From positions 1 through 49,920 of the forward strand of contig JBDRNT010000055.1 of assembly GCA_043810925.1 (NCBI GenBank): a DNA stretch of 49,920 nucleotides, in the 5' to 3' direction. Position 1 is the first letter of the stretch, and the number at the start of each line of letters is the position of its first letter. The position numbers and the translations under genes were made by a program. The notes under the pieces are model-generated. The model was not told where the DNA came from. It made no database searches and was given only the letters and a program-made list of their open reading frames with translations. Shown in pieces: positions 19,900 to 47,933 of the stretch. Source of the DNA: Candidatus Eiseniibacteriota bacterium. Lineage in GTDB: Bacteria > Arandabacterota > Arandabacteria > Arandabacterales > Arandabacteraceae.

Positions 19900-19964
19900 T
19901 GTTTTGTTGGAGCGGGACGCAGGCGCGTTCCGCTTTATTGTTTATTCCGACTCACAGGAGCCGA

Positions 19965-21974
19965 ATGCAAAAACTCTTAGTCTGGTGTCTGGTAGTGATT
20001 GGAGCTCTGAGTGCTATTGCTGCAGGCACCTCAGATGCGGCAAGACGGACGGTATTGATCGAGCAGGCGATAAACGCCGGATGCGGTTGAGGCCGCTGTC
20101 TGAATCCAAGTTTGGATTCGATGCTTGTCGATTACAGCCCGGTTGATGTCGTCATGATCAGGTACCACGGAGACCATCCGTGGGAGTTTGATCCGTTCTA
20201 CCTTGCCAACCCGGTGGATATCGTAGAACGCTTCGACTACTACTCCATAACCACCATACCGGCGCTTCTGATTGATGGTGTCAGGAGACCCAAGACCTGC
20301 TTCGTCGGACCGATCAAGGATGTGATCGACGAGAATCTGGGGATCACGAGTCCGATAAAGCTGGTGGCAAGCGACTCAATAGCCGGTGATTCCTGCTTCG
20401 TTGACATAAGCGTGATAGCGGAGCAGGAGCCTTCGGCGGACAGCCTTGTCCTCAGGGCGGCCGTGATCGAGGACAGTATATATTATGAAGCTCCCAACAC
20501 CCAGGACACCTTCAACTTCGTGTTCAGAGATTTTGTTCCCGATCCCGGTGGCATCGTGTTCGCGATAGATGCAGGGGAGACGCTGGACTTCGAACTGGCG
20601 TTTGAGGTTGACCCGTCGTGGGACCCGGCCAACATCAGCACCATTGTCTTTATCCAGGATGAAACGGATACAAGCATCGTCCAGGCAGTGTCTTCCGCAG
20701 CGCCACCGGCGGCCTGGGCGAGGTATTCCGCGCCCAGACGCGGGGATGTAGTGGGTGAAGGAAGGGAGACCGTTTTCCCAGGGACGCTGATAAGTCGTGG
20801 GACGGCTGTAGACACGTTCGACGTGGACTTCACGCAGCAGCTACCCCCGGACTGGGTTGCTGACTACGAAATCGCAGGTGGCATCCCGCTGGGCGGTTCG
20901 GTCGTGCTTGAACGCGACAGCTCGTGCGCAATCGACGTTACGATCGGCTGCGGCTACGATCCCGGGACCGGTGTCGCCACTTTGAACCTGACATCGCGCC
21001 GCGACCCTGCTTTCACCAGAAGCGTCAGATTTCTTGCCGTCTCAGGTGTGTGTGCTCTCATCGTCGATGACGACGTGGGCTATGATCTGGAGCATTACTA
21101 CGAAGACGCACTTGACTCATTGGGTATCTCGTGGGGAACGTGGGACCGGACCATCGATGTGCCTGAGGTTGATGACCTTGACGCGACGGAGTTCGTGATC
21201 TGGTTCACAGGTCATGCCGCACCGAGTCTCGATGTACACGATCAATCGCTGCTGGCTTCCTACCTAGCAGGCGACGGCCGCCTCTTCTTGACCGGGCAGG
21301 ACATAGGATGGGGCCTTGATGACATCAATAGCCACGAATGGACCGAGGAGTCCGAGACGTTCTACAGGACGTACCTTCATGCACGGCACATCATGTCGAA
21401 TTCCAGCCTCTGGACCCTGTCCGGGAGGGCGGGTGATCCCATAACTGATGGCCTGTCGATTACGATCGAGGGTGGAGATGGGGCCGATAACCAGAACTAC
21501 CCCGATGTGATAGACTCGATCGCACCCGCGCAGGTGATCTTCGACTACAGTGATCCGGCCAAACATGGCGGGATCCGCTTCGATTCCGACTCCTCGAAAG
21601 TCGTCTATCTCTCGTTTGGATTCGAAGCGATCTCGACACCGGAAGACCGTGTACTCCTGCTTTCGAGGATTGTAAACTGGTTCGGCGGTCTGGGTGGGAT
21701 CGATATCGCGTATCCTGCGCTGGTCGTGACATGCTACCCCAACCCGGCGACATCGTATGCCGCGATCTCGCTGTCCAGGCCGGGTGCGAAGGAAGCGGTC
21801 GAGATCTATGATGTTCTGGGGCGGGTCGTAAGGAAAGGTACAATCGGAGATGCCGGGTCGTTTAACTGGAATCTCAGGGATTCCTACGGTGGTGAAGTGG
21901 CCCCCGGGGTCTACTTCGTCTCGGTAGCGACAAATCCCGGCATAGTGAGCAGAAAGATCATCATCTCGCGGTAG
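19965..21974 (+). CDS. Secreted Omp28-related thioredoxin-fold protein with C-terminal sorting domain; putative selenoprotein (TGA 20088-20090 = codon 42)
   Basis: AGGAG RBS, ATG 19965, signal peptide, RTVLIEQAINAGCG-TGA-GRCLNPSLDSML in frame with the 20112..21974 ORF. Omp28-like IRYH...DPFY...YYSITTIPALLIDG, VFRDF, VFIQD; C-terminus YPNP...IYDVLGR...PGVYFV. Confidence 0.75.
20088..20120 (+). promoter_or_regulatory. UGA codon plus putative bacterial SECIS hairpin
   Basis: Stem GAATCCA (20102-20108), loop AGTT, TGGATTC (20113-20119); starts 11 nt after the UGA. Confidence 0.7.
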
Positions 21975-31996: not shown

Positions 31997-33113
31997 GACA
32001 AGAGCATATCTCTGCCTCGAGTGCGGCATCTGTACGGGCAGCTGTCCCGTTTCCAGGCATCACGACGCCTATTCACCGAGGCTGACGGTGGAGAAGGCGC
32101 TCCTCTTCAGTGAGGACGAGAGTGTGCATGACAGGGAGATTTGGAGCTGTCTAACATGCGGTACCTGTGACCTGCGGTGTCCGTCCACGGTTGATTTCAC
32201 GGGTTTCATGAGATCAATGAGGGGGCGCGCAAGACAGGTTGGTGAGAGCGGTGTCTGCACTCATGCGGACACACTCGCGGCCTTGATCGATCTTCAACGC
32301 ATGCCCGGCTTCAGAAGGCAGGCTTCCTGGCTCGGGCGAGGGGCTAAGACGCGGTCAAGGTCAAGCACGTATTACTTCGGAGGCTGCCTGCCGTTTCTCG
32401 ACGTGGTGTTTAAGGAAATAGGTTTCGATGGCAAGGGGATCGGGAACGCAAGTGTGCGCCTGCTCAATGAGCTCGGCATCGTACCTGCGGTAAGCGAAGG
32501 TGAGGTGTGCTGCGGTCATGATGAGTACTGGACCGGAGGAGACGATCTCGTTAAGGAACTTGCGAAACGTAACGTCGCGGCGATAAAGCGGACAGGGGCC
32601 AAGCGTGTCGTGTTCTCCTGTGCGGAATGCTATTACATGTTCAAACACGTCTATCCGGAGTTCGTAAGGGGTATGGGACTTGAGGTCGTCTTCCTCCTCG
32701 ATCTCTTAAGCGAGAAGATAGGTGACCTGCGTTTGAACCCGCACAAAGCCAGGGTGACCTACCACGATCCTTGCAGGATCGCAAAGTCCGACGACATAAT
32801 CGAGGAGCCTCGCCGGGTGCTTACGAGCATACCCGGTCTCGAGCTGGCGGAGATGAAGCGGACGGGCAAAGATGCCCTCTGTTGTGGTTCCAGCAGTTGG
32901 GTGAGTTGTTCGAGAGTAAATAAGAAAATCCAGGTTGAGAGACTTGATGAGGCCATATCGACAGGCGCTGAGGTGCTTGTCACCGCGTGTCCGAAGTGCA
33001 ACATACACCTGAGGTGTGCCCTCCGTGATGAGGATTGCTCAGGTAAAATAGAGATAACCGATGCGGTCACGCTTGTGGCCGGATCACTGGGAGGTAAGAA
33101 GCGTGGAAGGTAA
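31971..33113 (+). CDS. HdrD-like Fe-S oxidoreductase (HdrC ferredoxin + CCG domains)
   Basis: [51 protein letters not shown] + GTG 31971. Confidence 0.88.
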
Positions 33114-34398
33114 GGTTGCAGTGATCGGTGGTGGGATTGCCGGTATTCAGGCTGCGCTCGATCTCGGTGAGATGGGTGTTCAAGTCTATCTGATCGAGAA
33201 GAAACCCAGCATTGGCGGGGTGATGGCGCAGCTTGACAAGACCTTTCCCACCAACGACTGCTCCATATGAATTCTGGCGCCTAAAATGCTGGATGCCGGT
33301 CGGCATCCCAGGGTCGAACTGCTGGCGTACAGCGAGATAGAGGGGCTCAAGCGCAAGGGTGGCAAGTTCTCGCTTAAGGTCAGAAAGCGCACCCGGTACG
33401 TCGATGAAGACATATGCAACGCCTGCGGCATGTGTGTGAGCAAGTGTCCGGGGAAGGCGCCCGATGCCTTCGACATGGGTTTGCGCACCCGGAAGGCCAT
33501 ATACCTTTACTTCTCTCAGGGTATTCCGGCGGTCATGACCATTGACAGCGACCATTGCATATACTTCACCAAGGGCAAGTGCGGCGTGTGCAAGAAGATA
33601 TGCGACAAGGGCGCGATAGACTACGAGATGAAAGACAAGATCCTGAATCTCGATGTCGATGCGATAATAGTCGCCACCGGGCTTGATATCTTCGATCCGA
33701 CACATCTTACCCACTACGGCTTCGGAAAAATCCAGAACGTCATAACCGGGCTGCAGTATGAGAGGCTTATAAACGCAACCGGCCCCACCGGAGGGCATCT
33801 TCACAGACCCTCCGACGGTAAGCTGGCCAAGAAGGTGGCTTACATACAGTGTGTAGGCTCGAGAGATCTCAACAACTGCGCGTATTGCTCGAGTGTGTGC
33901 TGCATGTATTCGATCAAAGACGCCATGCTGGCACGGGAACACGATCCTGAATCGGTTTCCTATGTCTTTCACACGGACCTCAGGAACGTGGGCAAGTGGT
34001 TCCAGAAGTACGAGAAGCGGGCTGCGGAAGAGTACGGAGTCCAGTACATACGGGGACGTGTTGCGGAGATCGAGGAGGGTCCCAACGGGAATCCTATCGT
34101 ATGGTATGAGGATACGAGGAAGCGAAAGGTCGAATCGCTCGAGACCGAAATGGCCGTGCTCGCAACCGCCGCGATGCCGTCAAGGGGCGCGCTCGATCTC
34201 GCGAAGCTTCTCCGGATCAAGGCCGATAAGTACGGTTTCATCCTGAGTCCGCCCGAGCAACCGGTAGACACCAGTGTCGCGGGCATCTTCGCGTGCGGGT
34301 TCTGCAAGGGACCGTGTGATATACCCGAGGCGGTGAGCCAGGCGAGCGCCGCCGCGGAACGGGCGGCAGCCAGGATATATAAGGAAGTCGGCGTATGA
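33103..34398 (+). CDS. hdrA: Selenocysteine-containing HdrA-family flavoprotein (TGA 33268-33270 = Sec56)
   Basis: [10 protein letters not shown]...[26 protein letters not shown] at the known HdrA CxxC/U position, in frame with the 33286 ORF; inserted ferredoxin; YIQCVGSR...YCSSVCC. Confidence 0.92.
33268..33311 (+). promoter_or_regulatory. UGA codon plus putative SECIS hairpin (hdrA)
   Basis: Stem GGATGCC (33291-33297), loop GGTC, GGCATCC (33302-33308). Confidence 0.75.
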
Positions 34399-36083
34399 AA
34401 AAGCCGGACAAGAAGGACACGGGAAAAGGCCCGCGCATAGGGGTGTTCGTCTGTAACTGCGGGACGAATATCGCGGGGTTCCTGGAGGCGAAGGCTGTAG
34501 CCGACTATGCGTCGGGTTTGCCCAACGTGGTATTTGTAAGAGAGAACCTCTACTCCTGTTCGGAGGCCGGTATCAATGACATCCGCCAGGGTATTATCGA
34601 CAACAAACTTGAAGGGGTCGTGGTTGCCGCCTGTACCCCGAGGACGCATGAGCCGACGTTTCGCGCTGCATGCGAAGACGCCGGGCTCAATCCCTATTTT
34701 TTCGAATTCGTCAACATCAGGGAGCACTGCTCGTGGGTACATAAAGAGGAGCGGGAGGCGGCTACGCAGAAGGCGAAGGACCTTATCAGAATGGGTGTTG
34801 CACGGGCGGCGTATCTTGAGCCGATGGAACCCATCATCGGGGATGTGACGAGACGCGCACTCGTGATCGGCGGGGGCATCTCGGGCATGACCGCCTCGCT
34901 CGAGCTGGCCGGGCGAGGGTTTGAGGTGGTCCTGGTTGAGAAACAGAAGCAACTCGGCGGGCTCTTGAAGGCCGTGAACTGGATCTACCCGCACGAGAGG
35001 CCGGCCCGGGAGTATGTGAAGGGTCTGGTCGACCGTGTAGGGAAGGCGCGCCGCATGAAGGTCCTCAAGTCCTCAGAAGTGACCGAGGTCAAGGGCTACA
35101 TAGGCAAGTATATCGTATCAATCACATCACTTAAAAAACCCGTGACAACGGGTATCATAATCGTGGCGACAGGGGCGGAAGTACTTGTACCCGAAGGGCA
35201 ATACGGCTTTGATTCGAAACGGGTGGTGACCCAGCTTCAACTCGAAGATCTGCTCGCACGCTCGAAGTCCCGTCCAGGAAACGTCGTTATGATCGGCTGC
35301 GTCGGGGCGAGAACCAGGGAGCGGTTCTACTGCTCGCGGATTTGCTGCATGACGGCCATCAAGAACGCGGTCCTTATCCGCAAGAAGTGGAAGTCGGATG
35401 TGACCATGCTCTACAGGGATCTCATGTGTTACGGGATAAAGTATGAGGCGCTTCTGATGGAGGCGAAGGAAGCCGGTGTCAGGTTCGTCAACTACCCGGA
35501 CGACGGACCGCCGGTCGCCGGGAAGGGCGAGGTCAGGGTAACAAGCGCCATACTGGGAAGAGAGATGGTGCTCCCCTATGATCTCCTTGTGCTTGAGACC
35601 CCGCTTGTTCCGGCCGGTACGAATGAAGCTCTTTCCAGGATGCTGAAGGTCCCACTTGACGAGTACGGCTTCTTCCTCGAGGCCCATGTGAAGCTAAGAC
35701 CGCTTGACTTCGCAACGGACGGGATCTTTGTCTGCGGGACCGCACGGTGGCCCGCCAGCATCCGGGAGTGCGTCGAGCAGGCGCTCGGTGCCGCATCGCG
35801 GGCATCCACGTTCCTGGAGAGCGGCCGGGTCAAGGTTGAACCGATTGTCTCATTCGTGACCGAGGATGACTGCAGGGGCTGTGGGCTCTGTGTTGCGCTC
35901 TGTCCCTACGGAGCGATTGAGCTGGTCAAGACAGAGGCCGGAGAGAAGGCACGGACAATCGATGTCGCCTGCAAGGGTTGTGGTACGTGCGGGGCGACCT
36001 GCTACCGGGGCGCGATTACGATGAAGCATTATAGCGACGAGCAATTGACTGCCCAGATACGGGCAGCTTTTAAGAAGGAGTGA
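34395..36083 (+). CDS. hdrA: HdrA-family flavoprotein with intact N-terminal cluster domain and C-terminal ferredoxin
   Basis: GVFVCNCGTNI, VAACTPRTHE, NIREHCSWVH, GGGISG, YCSRICC, EAHVKLRP, CRGCGLCVALCP, CKGCGTCGATC. Confidence 0.9.
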   Translation: MKKPDKKDTGKGPRIGVFVCNCGTNIAGFLEAKAVADYASGLPNVVFVRENLYSCSEAGINDIRQGIIDNKLEGVVVAACTPRTHEPTFRAACEDAGLNPYFFEFVNIREHCSWVHKEEREAATQKAKDLIRMGVARAAYLEPMEPIIGDVTRRALVIGGGISGMTASLELAGRGFEVVLVEKQKQLGGLLKAVNWIYPHERPAREYVKGLVDRVGKARRMKVLKSSEVTEVKGYIGKYIVSITSLKKPVTTGIIIVATGAEVLVPEGQYGFDSKRVVTQLQLEDLLARSKSRPGNVVMIGCVGARTRERFYCSRICCMTAIKNAVLIRKKWKSDVTMLYRDLMCYGIKYEALLMEAKEAGVRFVNYPDDGPPVAGKGEVRVTSAILGREMVLPYDLLVLETPLVPAGTNEALSRMLKVPLDEYGFFLEAHVKLRPLDFATDGIFVCGTARWPASIRECVEQALGAASRASTFLESGRVKVEPIVSFVTEDDCRGCGLCVALCPYGAIELVKTEAGEKARTIDVACKGCGTCGATCYRGAITMKHYSDEQLTAQIRAAFKKE

Positions 36084-36085
36084 GT

Positions 36086-36874
36086 ATGAGTTTTAAACCG
36101 CACATCATAGCTTTCTGCTGTAACTGGTGAGCATACAGTGCGGCTGACCTCGCCGGGGTAGCGAGGTTTCAATATGCGCCCGACATCAGGGTTGTGAGGG
36201 TGATGTGTTCGGGCAGGGTGGATCCTGTGATGGTCATCGAGTCATTCATCGCGGGAGCGGACGGAGTATTCGTGGGCGCGTGCAAACGCGGAGAATGCCA
36301 TTATACGTCCGGTAACCTCCATGCCGAGGGCAAGATGGAAATGACCAGGCGAGTGCTCCGGATGGGCGGAATAGACCCTGCCAGAGTGCGGATGCGTATG
36401 ATGTCGAGTGCCGAGGGCAACAAGTTCGTCGAGTTCGCAGGTGAGTTTCAGAAGGACATCACCGAGCTGGGACCTCTGGGTAAGCCCGAGGGCATCGATA
36501 AGAAAGACCTTGAGATAAAGCTGCAGGCTGCCGGTAAGGCGCTCGGCGGCCGCAAGATCAGGTGGGTCACAGGCAAGATAGTCGAATTCACCGAAAAGGG
36601 AAACCTCTACGGGGAGAAGTTCACAGCCCATGAGATAGGAAGGCTCTTCGACGAGATAGCTATGGATGAATTCGGACTGAGAGAGATACTGGAGCGGCTC
36701 AAGGCCAGGCCCCATTCGGTAAAGGAGCTGGCCGCCAGGATGGAAACGGCACCGAAGATTCTAGTAAGACAGATGGCGGATCTTAAGAAGATGGGTTTTG
36801 CGGAGATACACTCGGTTGAGGGAAACACCCCTGTGTGGAGACTTTCGGGTAACGGTGAGACGGAATATGAGTGA
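36086..36874 (+). CDS. mvhD: Selenocysteine-containing MvhD-family subunit (TGA 36128-36130 = Sec15) with C-terminal winged-helix-like extension
   Basis: AAGGAG RBS, MSFKPHIIAFCCNW-TGA-AYSAADLAG...RVMCSGRVD...GACKRGECHY; in frame with the 36194 ORF. Confidence 0.92.
36128..36168 (+). promoter_or_regulatory. UGA codon plus putative SECIS hairpin (mvhD)
   Basis: Stem ACCTCGC (36147-36153), loop CGGGGTA, GCGAGGT (36161-36167). Confidence 0.72.
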
Positions 36875-38555
36875 TAAGTCTTCCCCGAGGGAAGTAGTCG
36901 TTGTCGGTGGTGGAATAACCGGGCTTAAGGCGGCGCTCGAGGCCGCGGGATCGGGCGCAAGGGTTGCGCTCGTAGAGGAGTCCCCGTTCCTCGGCGGGCT
37001 CCTGCTCAAGCAGGAACGGGTGGTTCCGGAGGGCTTCCCATCGGTCTGTCTTTCATCCAGGTTGGTGAATGAGGTTCTTGCGCACCCGGGGATCAGGGTA
37101 CTTACGAACTCGACCCTGGGGAGTGTGCGCAAGAAGGACGACAAGATCAAAGTCAGCCTTACTCACCAGCCCAGCAGGGTGACCGGGGCCTGTAACGCAT
37201 GTGCCGAGTGCCTGCTTGTTTGCCCGATAAAGCCTTATGACGGTTACAACGAAGGCTTGATGCTGAGGACGGCCATAGACTTTGCGGGGCCGCGCGCCTT
37301 CGGCGGCGAGTACAACATCGAGAAGGAAACACCCGCGTGCCAGGAACGATGCCCGGTCCACATAGACATAAGAAGGTATGTGGGGCTGATCGCCGGTGGG
37401 CGGTACGAGGAAGCGATAAGAGTCGTACGTGAAAAGAACCCGTTACCCGCGGTCTGCGGCCGGATCTGTCCTCATCCATGTGAGACCGTCTGTAACAGGG
37501 GCCGTCAGGACGAGGCGATTGCGATTGATGCTCTCAAGCGTTTCGTAAGCGACTACGAAATCGCACAGCGAAAAGCCGGCAAGTTCGTGGCGCCGAAGCC
37601 CAGGAAGGATCTTAAGACCAGGGTGGCCGTCGTCGGGGCGGGCCCTGCCGGTCTTACGTTTGCGCACGATCTCGCGCTCGAAGGCTATCGGGTGACGGTC
37701 TTTGAAGCCGCCCCCGTACCCGGCGGAATGATGCACCTCGGAATTCCCGAATACAGGCTGCCACGGGACATCCTCTTGAGTGATGTTGCTTACATTGAGG
37801 ACCTTGGTGTGGAGATAAAACTCAACACGCCTCTTACGAAAGAGTTCACGGTAGACGACCTCTTCAAGCAGGGCTTCAAGGGGGTCTTCCTGGGCGTGGG
37901 TGCCTACGAAGGCCTCAAACTCAGGGTGCCCGGGGAAGACGACTACGAAGGTTTTCTTGACTGCCTCAAGTTCCTCAGGGGTGTGAATCTCGGGGACAAG
38001 ACCAGGCCGGGTAACAAGGTGATAGTCATAGGCGGTGGGAACTCGGCGATCGACTCGGCAAGAACGGCGCTCAGGCTGGGTTGCGAGGAGGTCACCATAC
38101 TTTACAGGAGATCGCGAAGGGAGATGCCGGCAAACGACTGGGAGATCGAGGGAGCGGAGGAGGAAGGCGTCAAGATTCACTATCTCGCCGCACCGGTCAA
38201 GATCCTGGGTAAGGGTGGCAAGGTGGCAGGCATGGAGTGCACCAGGATGAGGCTCGGCAAACTCGATGCAAGCGGGCGAAGACGGCCGATTCCTCTTGAG
38301 GGTTCGGAATTCACGGTTGAGGCCGATCTCATCATCCCGGCCATCAGCCAGCAGCCGGATATCACGTTCCTACCGGACGAACATGGCTTCGAGATCTCGC
38401 GCTGGAACTCATTTGTGGTTGATGAACGGACGATGGCCACAAATCGTCCCGGCATCTATGCCGGGGGGGATGGTGTTACCGGGCCCGCCACGGTGATCGA
38501 GGCCATACGTGCGGGCCACATTGCAGCCGATTCAATGAAGGAGTACTTGCGTTAG
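36867..38555 (+). CDS. HdrA N-terminus/ferredoxin fused to GltD/NfnL-like NAD(P)H oxidoreductase (HdrL-like, first half)
   Basis: GGGITG, CNACAECLLVCP, PACQERCP, CGRICPHPCE, GAGPAG, GIPEYRLP, GGGNSAID, YRRS, AGGD. Confidence 0.88.
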   Translation: MSDKSSPREVVVVGGGITGLKAALEAAGSGARVALVEESPFLGGLLLKQERVVPEGFPSVCLSSRLVNEVLAHPGIRVLTNSTLGSVRKKDDKIKVSLTHQPSRVTGACNACAECLLVCPIKPYDGYNEGLMLRTAIDFAGPRAFGGEYNIEKETPACQERCPVHIDIRRYVGLIAGGRYEEAIRVVREKNPLPAVCGRICPHPCETVCNRGRQDEAIAIDALKRFVSDYEIAQRKAGKFVAPKPRKDLKTRVAVVGAGPAGLTFAHDLALEGYRVTVFEAAPVPGGMMHLGIPEYRLPRDILLSDVAYIEDLGVEIKLNTPLTKEFTVDDLFKQGFKGVFLGVGAYEGLKLRVPGEDDYEGFLDCLKFLRGVNLGDKTRPGNKVIVIGGGNSAIDSARTALRLGCEEVTILYRRSRREMPANDWEIEGAEEEGVKIHYLAAPVKILGKGGKVAGMECTRMRLGKLDASGRRRPIPLEGSEFTVEADLIIPAISQQPDITFLPDEHGFEISRWNSFVVDERTMATNRPGIYAGGDGVTGPATVIEAIRAGHIAADSMKEYLR

Positions 38556-43259: not shown

Positions 43260-46200
43260 ATGATCGGTATACGTACAACCAGGATGCAATATCTGCCTGT
43301 GGCAATCTTCTTTCTACTTGTAATCGGAAGTACGATCCAGGTCCCCTCTGCCGGCGGCGCCGAGCATCCCCGGGCAAGGGCGCTGGTCCATGCACCGAGC
43401 GACCGCCTGCCCGCAGTTCCCGACGCAGGCTTCATCCCTCCGGCACGTGACATGCTGCATATCATGCCGGGGCGCTCACTTCGGAGCCCGGCAACTCTGC
43501 CGTCCCGATTCGATTGGCGCGAGCATGGAAAGGTGACATCGGTCAAGAACCAGGGGGCCTGCGGTTCGTGCTATGCGTTTGCTGCACTCGCCAATGTGGA
43601 GGCCAAGTTGCTGGTCGATGGGGAGCCGCGCTATGACTTTTCGGAGAACAACATCAAGGAATGCGAGTGGTACCAGAGCAGCTGCTCGGGAGGGAATTAC
43701 CACCGGATGGCAAACTTCCTGTCGCAGAAGGGCGCGGTGCTTGAAACCTGCGACCCGTATGTGCCGGCCAACGTAGCGTGTAAGAGTACCTGCAACTACG
43801 TGACCACACTTCTGGACTGGAGCATGGTCTCGGCGGAGAGCATCCCGGAACCCGATCTCCTCAAGTCCTACATCATGGCGTATGGGCCGCTTTACACAAC
43901 GCTCTCTGCCGGAGGGAGCTCCTGGTACGCCGAGTTGAAAGCCTATGACGGTTCGTACACGCTGTATAACCCGGTGAGGCAAGAAGTCAACCATGCCGTT
44001 CTGCTCATAGGCTGGGATGATTCGCTGGAGCATGCCGGCGGTCAGGGCGGCTGGATAGCAAAGAACAGCTGGGGTAGCGCCTGGGGGGGACCCTGCGGCC
44101 ATGGCAGTGAGCGTGGCTTCTTCACCATGGCTTACGGCTCGGCGATGATGGGCTGCTGGTCCTCGTCAATGACCGGATGGCAGGACTATGATCCGGACGG
44201 ACGGCTGCTCTACTGCGACGAGGGCGGGTACCAGGCGGAGGCCCAGGTGGGTTTCGATGGGGTCACCGCATGGGGGATGTGCAAGCTTGCTGCTGACGAG
44301 GACATGCGCATCGAGCGTGTCGAGTTCTGGGCAACCGACATCACGACCGATATCGATGTCTACATTTACAATGACTTCGACGGGACTATGCTTTCGACAC
44401 TGCTCACGAGCGAGCTCGATCAGTCATTCTCCGAATACGGCTATCACTCGGTCGAACTCGCTTCTCCCATCGTTGTGGAGCCGGGGGACGATGTTTACGC
44501 CGTGGTCAGGTTCACCAATTCATCTTTTCCCTATCCGGTCGCACTCGATGGAAACGGTATCGTTGCCCCGGGGAAGTGCTATGTGAGCGCCGACGGCAAC
44601 GCCTGGCAGGATGTACGGACCATCGAAGGCTGCGAAAACTCCGACGTCTGCATCCGGCTCAGGGGGACGGAGCTTGCGACAACCCATACCTGGCATGTGC
44701 CGTCTGATGCAGCAACCATAGGGGAAGCCGTCGGTCTTGCTGATGCGGGAGATACGGTGATCGTGGCTCCGGGGACCTACTCCGATGGCTCGATCCTGAT
44801 CGATCGGGCGATCGTAGTCATGAGCGTAGCCGGTCCTGAAAGCACCGTAATCGATGCGGGTCCCACCGGTCCACACGAGCACGTGATCTTGTTCAGCTCG
44901 GTCGGAAGCGGGGCGAGACTCAGAGGCTTTACCTTTACCGGTCTCATAAATCCTTACGCTTCAGGCGTGGTCAGGATAGCGAATTCAACTCCATGCATCG
45001 AGGCTTGCGTTATTGCCGGGAACAACCTGATGGGTGTGGGGATAAACATCGATGATTCGTCACCACACATATCAGAGTGCACGATTGAAGGCAACACTGC
45101 GATTGCCGGAGTGTACTACACGGGTGGGAGCGGTGGTGAGCTTACCCGCACCATAGTGTCAAACACCCACGGTGGGGATGCCATCACGTGTCTGCAGGGA
45201 TCGGATCCCCTCATATCGTGCTGTGACCTCTACTTGAACACCCGGAGCGATACCGTTTGCGGTACCGACGGCGGCGGCAACTTCTCGGAAGATCCGGTGT
45301 TCTGCAACGGTGAAGGCGGTGACTATTCTCTATCTGATACCTCGCCCTGCCTCGCCGGCTACGGGTGCGGACGTATCGGTGCCGTCGGCCAGGGCTGTCC
45401 AACCGAGATACCAGGGGCGCTGCCGGCCTTCTCGGTCAGCCCGGGGGATACATCCAATGTGCTCGAGTGGTCACTGCCACAGGCACCGGTTCAGGGCGCC
45501 CTCATAGTCTATTCGACATCGGCCTACCCGGAAAGTGCCGGGGCGGGGCTACCCATTGAAAACGGCAACGCGGGCTTCGTAATGGGCTCACCTTCCAGTC
45601 AGGGGGGTTTTGCTCATACGGGGCTTTCAAACGATACGACGTACTACTACACAGCGTATGCATACAACGGGACACTGCTGAGCGAGACCGGACTGACCGC
45701 AAGCGGCAGTCCGTCTGATACGGTGCCACCAGGGGCACCAGTCACTTTCTCGCCCGCGCCCGCACCCGGCGAGATCACGCTCTCATGGGTCTATCCCGCC
45801 GACGGCGATCTTGAAGGAGTGGTCATTCGCTATTCGACATCATCATACCCTGCATCTCATTCTGACGGGTCACCTGTAGAAAATGGGGCGGGAGGCGTCT
45901 TTCTGGGTCTGTCCGGCAGTGATGACTCTTTCACTCACGGTGGGCTTACGGATGACACCGTGTACTACTACTCGGCTTTCGCGTTCGATGAGGTCCCGAA
46001 CCATTCGACTGCAGCCCAGGGAAGTGCCTCACCCGGTGACTACACACCGCCCGATGAGGTTGTGAATTTCACTGCGGAGGCAGGGGACACCCTGGTCCAC
46101 GTTCGCTGGACCAATCCGCCGGACGGCGATTTTGAAGGCACCCTTATCAGGTATTCAACAGCGACCTTCCCGGTGGTGCCGACCGACGGGAACCCGGTGG

Positions 46201-47933
46201 AGAATGGCTTATCGGGGATGTTCGGGAATGCTCCGGCATCCCAGGATTCGTTCGTGCACATGGGCCTCACGAATGGGGAACCCCACTACTATACCGCCTT
46301 CGCCTTTGATGACCGTCCCAACTACTCGGCCGGTGTAAATGCAAGTGCGGTACCTGTAGATGTTGTCGCACCGGCGAGCCCCCAGGCCTTCACGGCGGAG
46401 CCCGGTGACGCCGTCGCGATGCTCAGGTGGACCACCGCGCCCGATGCTGACTTCAAATCAACTGTGATAAGGTACTCGACCACGAGTTACCCTGCCTCAC
46501 CGGCGGACGGGATCGCAGTTGAGAACGGCTCTGGCGGCGTGTTCATCGACTGGCCGGCTACCACCTCCACCTTCCTTCACGAAGGTCTCACAAACAACGT
46601 GACCTACTACTACGCGGCATTCTCAGCTGATGAGGTGCCGAATTACTCAAGCCAGGCCATAACAAGTGCCGCCCCGACCGACACCACTCCGCCTGTCCCC
46701 GTTGGTGGATTCAGGGTGGTGGCAGGGGACTCAGCCGTGACGCTCACGTGGACAAACCCTTATGAGACGGATTTTGCGGGAGCGCTCCTGCGGTACTCCG
46801 CGACAGCCTACCCCTCGTCGCCCGACGACGGGACTCCGGTGGAAAACGGAAACTCCGGAAGATTTCAGGGTATGCCGGGAGCTGCGGAGTCCTTCACACA
46901 CGCCGGGCTTGTCAATGAGACAACCTACTACTACTCGATATTCGCGTATGATGAAATGCCCAACTACTCCGCACCGGATACGGCTTCCGCCGCACCCTAT
47001 GACCAGGTTCCACCTGAGTTCTCGATCTCCGTTCTCCAAAACCCTTACATAACCAATCACCTCGACGTTTTCGTGGTGATGAGCGAGGTAGTGACCGAAG
47101 CAAGCCTCAGGTGCAGTGTTGATACCGTTCCTGTCGAGCTTGAAGTGACCGGGCCATCTCTGAACGTGTACCGGGGGGACTATGACCTGTGCACGAGCGG
47201 TGTGATGTCGATCTCTATCGAGGGTACGGATCTACGGGGCAACTGGTCCCGTTCCTCAAGGGATTTCTCATCCTTGCTTGTCCTTGCCGGTTCCGGTGGA
47301 ACTGCCGTGAGCCCCGATGGCAGGTGCAGGGTGCGGCTCGAGCCGGCCTCGATCGGGCATGACGCCTATGTGGTCATATTCGAATCCGGGTGTCGGGGCG
47401 GGTCTGAGCCCGTCGCCTACGAAATATCACCGGGTGCCCTCGACGTCGACGACTGGATCGAGATCTCAATTGAATACGATACGGACTGTTTTAAGCCTGA
47501 GCATCTCTGCATAGCCAGGGTCGAAGACGCCCGGACAACACCGCTCAACTCCTATCGACATAGCATACTGCACAGGATAAGTGCCTACACGCGGAACCTC
47601 GGGACCTACATGCTGGTGCGCAGGCTCCACGAGATTACACCGGAGTATGGATCGGGTAAGCTCAGCCTCATTCAAAATGCCCCCAATCCCTTTGACGGCA
47701 ATACCGAAATCGACTTCCATCTGCCGCGGCCAGGCATGATCCATATAGATGTGATCGCTGTTGACGGCAGGATCGTCCGGAACCTGCTCAATCGTAGCAT
47801 GCTGCCGGGAAGGTATACCGTCGAATGGGACGGATGTGACTCCTCGGGCCGCGAGGTCGCAAGCGGTCTTTACTTCTACCGGATCTGCACGGCCCGCGAG
47901 GCTGTGACCCGCAAGATGATCCTCTTGAAATAA
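43260..47933 (+). CDS. Large secreted papain-family (C1A) cysteine peptidase with lectin-like, beta-helix, five FN3-like repeats and FlgD-Ig/T9SS-like C-terminus
   Basis: FDWR, QGACGSCYAF (Cys), NHAVLLIGW (His), KNSWG (Asn); five repeats with YSTxxYP...G.PVENG; QNAPNPF...WDG.D..G..VASGLYFYR...KMILLK. Confidence 0.88.
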   Translation: MIGIRTTRMQYLPVAIFFLLVIGSTIQVPSAGGAEHPRARALVHAPSDRLPAVPDAGFIPPARDMLHIMPGRSLRSPATLPSRFDWREHGKVTSVKNQGACGSCYAFAALANVEAKLLVDGEPRYDFSENNIKECEWYQSSCSGGNYHRMANFLSQKGAVLETCDPYVPANVACKSTCNYVTTLLDWSMVSAESIPEPDLLKSYIMAYGPLYTTLSAGGSSWYAELKAYDGSYTLYNPVRQEVNHAVLLIGWDDSLEHAGGQGGWIAKNSWGSAWGGPCGHGSERGFFTMAYGSAMMGCWSSSMTGWQDYDPDGRLLYCDEGGYQAEAQVGFDGVTAWGMCKLAADEDMRIERVEFWATDITTDIDVYIYNDFDGTMLSTLLTSELDQSFSEYGYHSVELASPIVVEPGDDVYAVVRFTNSSFPYPVALDGNGIVAPGKCYVSADGNAWQDVRTIEGCENSDVCIRLRGTELATTHTWHVPSDAATIGEAVGLADAGDTVIVAPGTYSDGSILIDRAIVVMSVAGPESTVIDAGPTGPHEHVILFSSVGSGARLRGFTFTGLINPYASGVVRIANSTPCIEACVIAGNNLMGVGINIDDSSPHISECTIEGNTAIAGVYYTGGSGGELTRTIVSNTHGGDAITCLQGSDPLISCCDLYLNTRSDTVCGTDGGGNFSEDPVFCNGEGGDYSLSDTSPCLAGYGCGRIGAVGQGCPTEIPGALPAFSVSPGDTSNVLEWSLPQAPVQGALIVYSTSAYPESAGAGLPIENGNAGFVMGSPSSQGGFAHTGLSNDTTYYYTAYAYNGTLLSETGLTASGSPSDTVPPGAPVTFSPAPAPGEITLSWVYPADGDLEGVVIRYSTSSYPASHSDGSPVENGAGGVFLGLSGSDDSFTHGGLTDDTVYYYSAFAFDEVPNHSTAAQGSASPGDYTPPDEVVNFTAEAGDTLVHVRWTNPPDGDFEGTLIRYSTATFPVVPTDGNPVENGLSGMFGNAPASQDSFVHMGLTNGEPHYYTAFAFDDRPNYSAGVNASAVPVDVVAPASPQAFTAEPGDAVAMLRWTTAPDADFKSTVIRYSTTSYPASPADGIAVENGSGGVFIDWPATTSTFLHEGLTNNVTYYYAAFSADEVPNYSSQAITSAAPTDTTPPVPVGGFRVVAGDSAVTLTWTNPYETDFAGALLRYSATAYPSSPDDGTPVENGNSGRFQGMPGAAESFTHAGLVNETTYYYSIFAYDEMPNYSAPDTASAAPYDQVPPEFSISVLQNPYITNHLDVFVVMSEVVTEASLRCSVDTVPVELEVTGPSLNVYRGDYDLCTSGVMSISIEGTDLRGNWSRSSRDFSSLLVLAGSGGTAVSPDGRCRVRLEPASIGHDAYVVIFESGCRGGSEPVAYEISPGALDVDDWIEISIEYDTDCFKPEHLCIARVEDARTTPLNSYRHSILHRISAYTRNLGTYMLVRRLHEITPEYGSGKLSLIQNAPNPFDGNTEIDFHLPRPGMIHIDVIAVDGRIVRNLLNRSMLPGRYTVEWDGCDSSGREVASGLYFYRICTAREAVTRKMILLK

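Follow-up and report, generated by a model that had tools for sequence, protein, structure and literature searches.

Selenoproteins with a thioredoxin-like fold that are related to Omp28 were described in 2008 under the name GOS_C (Zhang and Gladyshev 2008, PMC2398784). The available part of that work reports 74 sequences with selenocysteine (Sec, U) and 312 cysteine homologs for GOS_C, a UxxC motif and no known function. The corresponding family model NF045500 is listed as "Hypothetical protein GOS_C" with the motif UxxC in the available part of a 2026 review of the prokaryotic selenoproteome (PMC13188914), the only full-text source in which NF045500 was found. The same part of the review lists another thioredoxin-like selenoprotein, from a different Pfam family (PF13192), with the motif CxU. 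HBP35 of Porphyromonas gingivalis is a cargo of type IX secretion (T9SS) with a thioredoxin motif (PMC2907840). According to the available part of that report, C48 and C51 of HBP35 are required for insulin reduction, the protein complements an Escherichia coli dsbA mutant, and hemin is bound via the C-terminal part, for which the two cysteines are unnecessary. In this work, we have analysed a gene at positions 19965-21974 (plus strand) of a DNA stretch of 49,920 nucleotides from a Candidatus Eiseniibacteriota bacterium (assembly GCA_043810925.1, contig JBDRNT010000055.1), and this whole stretch is referred to as the window. The comparison of related sequences indicates that the locus is very probably one real selenoprotein gene. 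The explanation that we consider likely as a whole is a single gene in which the UGA at 20088-20090 is read as Sec with the help of a downstream hairpin and which encodes an exported redox protein of the cell surface.

The window protein is similar to GOS_C in being an Omp28-kind, thioredoxin-like selenoprotein with many cysteine homologs. NF045500, entitled "Omp28-related selenoprotein", is its best redox-related NCBIfam match, with residues 26-242 aligned to model positions 37-264, and paralogs of about 370 residues in the same phylum share the UxxC motif given for GOS_C in the available part of the 2008 work. However, the window protein scored only 31.4 bits (29.1 bits on DNA) against the NF045500 cut-off of 200, and no match above that cut-off was found among the 41 genomes searched. 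The window protein also differs in the position of its Sec, which is the third position of the motif (C-G-U), while Cys40 occupies the column of the first-position Sec. In the clade of the window gene the second cysteine has been lost and C112 has been gained, and the window protein has a T9SS tail and three additional domains fused to it. In HBP35, too, a beta-sandwich comes after the thioredoxin module and the C-terminal domain is of the T9SS kind, but the sequence identity is only 14-15%, the CxxC (C48, C51) is a plain one without Sec, and the second sandwich and the amidotransferase-like domain are absent. The Omp28 lipoprotein family (PF11551; NF033782; PDB 2r2c) is similar in that the Pfam gathering score is passed and the first sandwich matches 2r2c. 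However, the score against NF033782 (Omp28 family outer membrane lipoprotein) is 14.1 bits where the cut-off is 150, no lipobox was seen, and the window protein would leave the cell by the T9SS rather than be anchored by a lipid. The PF13192 family, to which the CxU motif is assigned in the available part of the review, gave no match to the window protein at E <= 1.

The original prediction for this locus, which had been made from the DNA alone, placed the protein outside the classical selenoprotein lists. This was overstated, since the Omp28-related thioredoxin-fold selenoproteins described in 2008 as GOS_C are now represented by NF045500. Since lists of selenoproteins have included related Omp28-type members from 2008 onwards, the window gene extends a known kind and does not found a new one. 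New, judging from the aligned sequences, is a clade in which the Sec is shifted, the second cysteine lost and C112 gained, and in which two additional domains and a T9SS tail have been fused on. No description of this clade was found in full-text searches that paired selenoproteins with Omp28 or with type IX secretion; the supplement of the 2008 GOS_C work might hold C-x-U forms. The deep-Sep paper does not mention Omp28, T9SS or signal peptides.

The gene begins at ATG 19965, and a Shine-Dalgarno-like AGGAG (19956-19960, plus strand) was read off the sequence 4 nucleotides ahead of it. When TGA is translated as U, the frame runs to the stop codon TAG at 21972-21974 and yields 669 residues, and the orthologs are colinear with it on both sides of the TGA. 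The in-frame TGA at 20088-20090 is codon 42. Genetic code table 11 divides the locus into an open reading frame (ORF) of 66 residues and one of 620 residues that starts at TTG 20112. The ORF of 620 residues opens with MDSMLVDY and has neither a hydrophobic leader nor a Shine-Dalgarno sequence. The ribosome binding site, ATG 19965, signal-peptide pattern, in-frame TGA and unshifted frame of 669 residues in the original prediction were all recovered on the sequence, and so was its statement that the ORF of 620 residues has no signal peptide of its own.

It had further been expected that annotation pipelines would split the gene, and this is what the gene calls exhibit. The window gene is stored in a public protein collection as a product of 617 residues. 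Twenty of the 29 close database homologs (window gene included) start downstream of the Sec column, and 17 start within 13 residues of it. Another eight of the 29 are complete or almost complete and have the sequence G-C-G-C, and the remaining one (P0021) has Phe at the Sec column. The shortened gene calls fit a TGA without proving one, and DNA was examined for some of these shortened calls. The calls that start past the Sec column lose both the signal peptide and the active site, which is consistent with cutting at the TGA. Cut gene calls likewise affect dozens of UxxC paralogs in the same small, uncultured phylum.

Residues 1-250 were searched with stops read through against 41 related genomes and then against all 18 species genomes of the phylum, where orthologs were accepted at E <= 1e-40. 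An ortholog is present in 11 of the 18 species genomes. Exactly one in-frame TGA is found in seven of the 11 orthologs and none in the other four. The seven TGAs share one alignment column, and the other four orthologs have TGC in that column. The seven TGA-bearing genomes span four genera, and their frames contain no further stop. Conservation of the protein extends to either side of the TGA and includes the putative signal peptide, and the Cys forms consist of a single uninterrupted frame. Independent assemblies agree on the TGA. Cys encoded by TGC as the alternative residue in orthologs is a signature of Sec sites. The alternation between TGA and Cys in related genomes, which had been named as a check of the prediction, was thus found in one and the same column.

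Eight related metagenome loci were also identified. Three of them exhibit TGA and the hairpin, two exhibit TGC without the hairpin, the N-terminus is missing from one, and the remaining two are distantly related UxxC forms. One of the TGA loci and one of the TGC loci resemble two of the genome organisms by their N-terminal peptides and are not independent of them. A tree of 40 N-terminal domains requires at least five Sec/Cys changes for the 22 rows whose state is known. The clade can therefore be regarded as a natural experiment in active-site plasticity, with at least five Sec/Cys exchanges, a non-canonical reactive position and a co-evolved extra cysteine.

A candidate selenocysteine insertion sequence (SECIS) hairpin was identified at 20101-20120 (plus strand), with an 8-bp stem and a loop AGUU that begins 18 nucleotides past the UGA. 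Seven Watson-Crick pairs are formed by the arms GAATCCA (20102-20108) and TGGATTC (20113-20119) around the AGTT loop, and this stem of 7 bp begins 11 nucleotides downstream of the TGA, exactly as had been predicted. The eighth, closing pair is U.G at 20101/20120 (U-A in some forms). A bacterial SECIS is a stem-loop shortly downstream of the UGA with a G (GU) in its apical loop, and the spacing and the GU-containing loop do fit this description. The hairpin by itself has an energy of -8.6 kcal/mol. The fold energy of the 71-nucleotide stretch is unremarkable (z of -0.95 against shuffles) and was hence dropped as evidence. A perfect hairpin of at least 7 bp that starts 5-25 nucleotides downstream was found at 595 of 59,818 sampled TGA trinucleotides of the genome (1.0%). 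Given this chance rate and the ordinary fold energy, the hairpin alone is a weak signal, and it is the conservation across genomes that carries weight.

The stem is kept and 100% paired in all nine distinct TGA forms, with the loops AGUU, AGGU or GGUC. Conservation at third codon positions among the nine TGA forms peaks at codons +3 to +9 after the TGA (0.92 compared to a median of 0.60, for windows of seven codons over about 250 codons), and this peak window is the hairpin. In the distant TGC forms, which belong to the sister family, different synonymous codons are used at the site, and these do not allow the hairpin. One TGC ortholog (L025, G009:C254) is nested among TGA forms, belongs to the same genus as two of them and retains the full hairpin, which is apparently a fossil SECIS after a recent change of TGA to TGC as judged from its sequence. 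The expectation of a conserved hairpin in related genomes was borne out, and its conservation is confined to sequences that have the TGA or lost it recently. A small helix with the UGA in its loop (20084-20100; columns 20-25 with 31-36 of alignment A4) was also considered; it is 92.6% paired in nine orthologs and includes one pair with G-C/C-G/U.G exchanges, and it is too weak to claim.

The genome encodes a complete Sec system, as the original prediction had asked to be confirmed through selA, selB, selC and selD. SelB (375.8 bits; gene at C15:15287-17164), SelA (587.2 bits) and two copies of SelD were identified, and the sel genes score above the curated cut-offs. The tRNA-Sec gene (selC) lies at C89:57331-57427 beside one selD. 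This selD has an in-frame TGA of its own, is itself a selenoprotein gene, and stands directly upstream of tRNA-Sec (G000:C89:56288-57427). The second selD is free of TGA and lies at C38:32076-32999. TGA is the commonest ordinary stop codon of the genome and ends 496 of 1200 open frames of at least 400 codons, so the code has not been reassigned genome-wide.

Two more genes in the window exhibit TGA at Cys-rich sites followed by hairpins, and the suggestion that HdrA and MvhD in the window point to UGA as a Sec codon agrees with this. The HdrA-like flavoprotein/ferredoxin gene (33061-36110, plus strand) has a TGA at 33268-33270 in NDCSI-U-ILAPK, which is followed by a strong hairpin with the loop GGUC. 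Its sequence marks it as a probable selenoprotein gene that table 11 would split. The MvhD/FlpD-type gene (36080-36877, plus strand; PF02662, 158.6 bits) has a TGA at 36128-36130 in FCCNW-U, which is followed by an 8-bp hairpin, and probably also encodes a selenoprotein.

The active-site residues were compared in 35 rows from the window-gene clade, 5 outgroup rows and 26 non-clade rows of alignment A3. The clade is separated from the outgroups with a Shimodaira-Hasegawa-like approximate likelihood ratio (SH-aLRT) support of 98, and 23 of its rows include the active-site part. Cys40 (codon 20082-20084, plus strand) lies in the first Cys/Sec column of the CxxC/UxxC of all relatives and is invariant in 35 of 35 rows of A3. 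Sec42 (codon 20088-20090, plus strand) forms the motif C40-G41-U42 and is the residue that alternates between TGA and TGC in orthologs. The second canonical CxxC column is never Cys in the clade (0/23) and is G, A or V in all 23 rows, and the canonical pair is thus absent. The residue that precedes this column is U or C in 22 of the 23 rows. Non-clade relatives, in contrast, exhibit C/U-x-x-C in 26 of 26 rows. The Sec is therefore two residues past the first cysteine and one before the lost second cysteine. The family profile aligns its CxxC with WCGPC of thioredoxin, and the Sec accordingly occupies the position of thioredoxin's proline.

Cys112 (codon 20298-20300, plus strand) is present in all 35 clade rows and in none of the 5 outgroup and 26 non-clade rows. 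Pro99 (codon 20259-20261, plus strand) is present in all 35 clade and all 5 outgroup rows, as expected of the cis-proline of thioredoxin. Cys45 (codon 20097-20099, plus strand) is present in all nine TGA forms and is C, V, I, A or S in the Cys forms, of which only 5 of 13 keep the cysteine. Two details of the prediction must be adjusted accordingly. The TGA does lie in the segment where Omp28-type proteins have their CxxC, but it is not at a cysteine of that CxxC and instead lies between the two, at the third position. The proposed overlap of CxU and UxxC holds for the TGA forms, all nine of which exhibit U-x-x-C45, and fails for the Cys forms, in 8 of 13 of which C45 is replaced.

The domains were delimited with structure predictions of residues 25-250 and of the full length of 669 residues, which gave predicted local distance difference test (pLDDT) values of 94.8 and 86.9, respectively. 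Foldseek with the whole 669-residue model returned mostly meaningless long alignments, and the domains were resolved by VIA. The thioredoxin-like subdomain consists of residues 25-125 (20037-20339, plus strand; model pLDDT 94.8), with the active site at the N-terminus of helix 1. The predicted N-terminal model exhibits a thioredoxin-like beta-alpha-beta core, helix 1 from residue 41, the motif at the N-terminus of that helix and the invariant Pro99, all as in a thioredoxin fold, and the core is followed by a beta-sandwich. This first beta-sandwich consists of residues 131-243 (20355-20693, plus strand), is for the most part the Omp28 region of Pfam, and aligns in the models with the Omp28 domain 2r2c. 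PF11551 (Pfam Omp28) matches residues 91-244 with 45.7 bits, which passes the gathering cut-off of 34.9. The best solved match of the N-terminal module is HBP35 (PDB 5y1a; Foldseek E 1.2e-12, TMq 0.79), with which VIA aligned 217 residues (residues 23-246) at Z 22.2 and a root-mean-square deviation of 2.8.

The second beta-sandwich consists of residues 252-360 (20718-21044, plus strand) and has a pLDDT of about 90 in the full-length model. It is followed by an alpha/beta domain of residues 361-578 (21045-21698, plus strand) with a fold like that of class I glutamine amidotransferases (GATases), which was recognised by VIA-align matches. These matches are the middle domain of GH42 5xb7 (Z 18.8), 2gk3 (Z 16.2), ThuA-like 1t0b (Z 14.1) and IFT52 5fms (Z 13.9). 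Comparison with GATase subunits and ThuA-like proteins gave Z of 13.5-16.2. The invariant residues of this domain in 33 homologs are D368-D369-D370, W393, W413 and E554. No Cys or His was found among the invariant or nearly invariant columns of residues 361-578 in these homologs, and a conserved Cys-His-Glu catalytic triad is absent. With no conserved Cys or His, the domain is taken as non-catalytic in the amidotransferase sense.

The N-terminal region of residues 1 to about 25 (19965-20039, plus strand) was read by eye as a signal peptide, with MQK, a hydrophobic core and AIAA/G. This n-h-c pattern is conserved in the orthologs, and the model exhibits a helix at residues 2-19 with low pLDDT. 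No Cys in a context that fits a lipobox was seen by eye within residues 1-25. The C-terminal end consists of a type IX sorting domain at residues 591-667 (21735-21965, plus strand), which is matched by PF18962 (36 bits against a cut-off of 27) and TIGR04183 (42.3 bits against 23). The genome also encodes T9SS machinery, with scores of 526.6 bits for the PorU sortase (cut-off 420) and 541.8 bits for the SprA translocon (cut-off 200). The putative signal peptide and the sorting domain together make it probable, as far as sequence motifs can tell, that the protein is exported across both membranes and displayed on the surface or released. About 45 further frames of the genome carry a matching sorting tail. 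One of the T9SS cargos is a very large protein in the window (about 43400-47933, plus strand) that consists of a papain-family C1 peptidase, a lectin-like domain, a beta-helix, fibronectin-III repeats and a sorting domain. To our knowledge, nearly all known bacterial selenoproteins act inside the cell or in the periplasm. If the assignment is true, a selenoprotein with a type IX sorting domain would mean that selenium chemistry takes place at the outer membrane or outside it.

The core of the original prediction, one exported selenoprotein gene that is split at its TGA, is supported by this comparative evidence, and other explanations of the locus were weighed against it. The TGA could be a true stop, in which case the locus would consist of a gene for a leader peptide of 41 residues and a separate gene for 617-620 residues, or would be a pseudogene. 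The two ORFs under table 11, the public gene calls that begin past the TGA and the occurrence of a chance hairpin at about 1% of TGAs agree with a stop. We consider it very improbable, since one TGA occurs in the same column in seven genomes of four genera and three metagenome contigs with conserved flanks and no other stop, and since the Cys forms are one uninterrupted frame. The downstream ORF lacks both a signal peptide and a Shine-Dalgarno sequence, although the T9SS sorting domain at its end requires prior export. That the TGA is read as a residue other than Sec (Trp, Cys or Gly through a near-cognate tRNA or an altered code), or that it is an assembly error, has nothing specific in its favour and was considered because Sec insertion is itself concluded from comparison. 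Such a reading is exceedingly unlikely in a genome that has a full Sec system and ends 496 of its 1200 long open frames with TGA. Cys (TGC), the residue expected in the place of Sec, is the alternative in the orthologs, and the agreement of independent assemblies argues against an error.

The explanation that deserves more attention concerns the function. C40, U42, C45 and C112 could form a binding site rather than a site of disulfide exchange, in which case it might serve at the surface as a receptor or scavenger, for instance of a soft metal or metalloid, or take part in heme handling in the manner of HBP35, with Sec as a ligand. The loss of the canonical second cysteine (0/23 compared to 26/26 in non-clade relatives) and the gain of C112 (35/35), which leave three to four close chalcogens, are in line with such a site, as is the lack of a gene for a redox partner in the neighbourhood. 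Hemin is bound by the C-terminal part of HBP35 (PMC2907840), which is the best structural match, but according to the same available part of that report the Cys pair of HBP35 serves reductase activity and not hemin binding. The window protein resembles redox-active thioredoxins in its fold, in its invariant Pro99 and in having the site at the N-terminus of helix 1, a plain CxxC/UxxC is retained in relatives, and 8 of 13 Cys forms do without C45. A binding site is on balance improbable.

Several observations weigh against the reading of the locus as a selenoprotein gene for a surface redox protein. The insertion of selenium at the UGA is suggested by sequence comparison. No RNA sequencing run was found for the locus, and the reads of the sole DNA sequencing run cover 20388-20500, which is outside the TGA. 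The homolog P0021 (659 residues) reads G-C-M-F-V-T-C and is the sole clade member with Phe at the column, with C40, C45 and C112 kept, so the Sec/Cys residue is dispensable in at least one lineage. Among the nine TGA orthologs, six of the eight hairpin pairs are invariant, two vary one-sidedly and none varies on both sides, and the covariation score was equalled in 56 of 500 shuffles. As the hairpin is short (8 bp) and nearly invariant, covariation is no argument for or against it. For a redox enzyme outside the outer membrane, no electron donor or acceptor was evident, nor do the neighbouring genes suggest one. The three or four clustered chalcogens (C40, U42, C45 and C112) would suit metal binding, too.

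Given that the gene is real, we lean towards a function as a surface thiol/selenol oxidoreductase, a judgement somewhat better than even. In this proposed mechanism, the UGA at 20088-20090 would be decoded as Sec with the aid of the hairpin at 20101-20120. The product would be exported by the Sec export pathway with cleavage of its signal peptide, would pass through the T9SS, and would then be attached or released at the cell surface. The working part would be the thioredoxin module of the HBP35/Omp28 type, in which CxxC/UxxC has been rebuilt as C40-G-U42, joined by C45 where Sec is present and by the clade-specific C112. This module may carry out thiol/selenol-disulfide exchange on extracellular substrates by reduction or isomerisation of disulfides. 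A selenenylsulfide could form between U42 and either C40 or C45, with C112 as a possible third partner. A role in binding or assembly is probable for the second beta-sandwich and the non-catalytic amidotransferase-like domain.

We tentatively put forward a further proposal, which is rather unlikely in its entirety. The Sec may have moved two residues along the active-site helix (U-x-x-C to C-G-U) with loss of the resolving cysteine and gain of C112, which would give a distinct centre of three or four chalcogens displayed through the T9SS by an anaerobe. If this holds, the protein would act at the cell surface as a selenoenzyme whose CxU selenenylsulfide chemistry is undescribed for the Omp28/HBP35/GOS_C kind. 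It could act on disulfides of extracellular proteins, for example by opening substrates for the many T9SS proteases of the genome, or on metals and metalloids.

The gene neighbours of the window gene encode an Fpg glycosylase, an uncharacterised membrane protein, a sulfatase and a B12-radical SAM protein, and no functional link to the window gene was found from these neighbouring genes. Paralogs of the thioredoxin module were also identified. UxxC paralogs in related genomes have TGA at the first Cys column in 18 rows (16 distinct genes) and exhibit longer hairpins downstream, with compensatory G-C to A-U changes in the stems as judged by eye. Some of them occur in tandem arrays, such as the four matches on G008:C48. 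The genome of the window (G000) has a paralog of this kind of about 365 residues (L021, G000:C77:589-1275, minus strand), which consists of an Omp28-like thioredoxin module and a T9SS tail and has a TGA at the first position of UxxC with a longer hairpin downstream. The same genome has a Cys paralog of the thioredoxin module (WCRFC) at G000:C38:38777-39466 (L017 1150-2205). The next gene (L017 2292-3668) consists of a separate amidotransferase-like domain and a T9SS tail. These two genes correspond, in split form, to the fused window gene and lie about 6 kb from the TGA-free selD.

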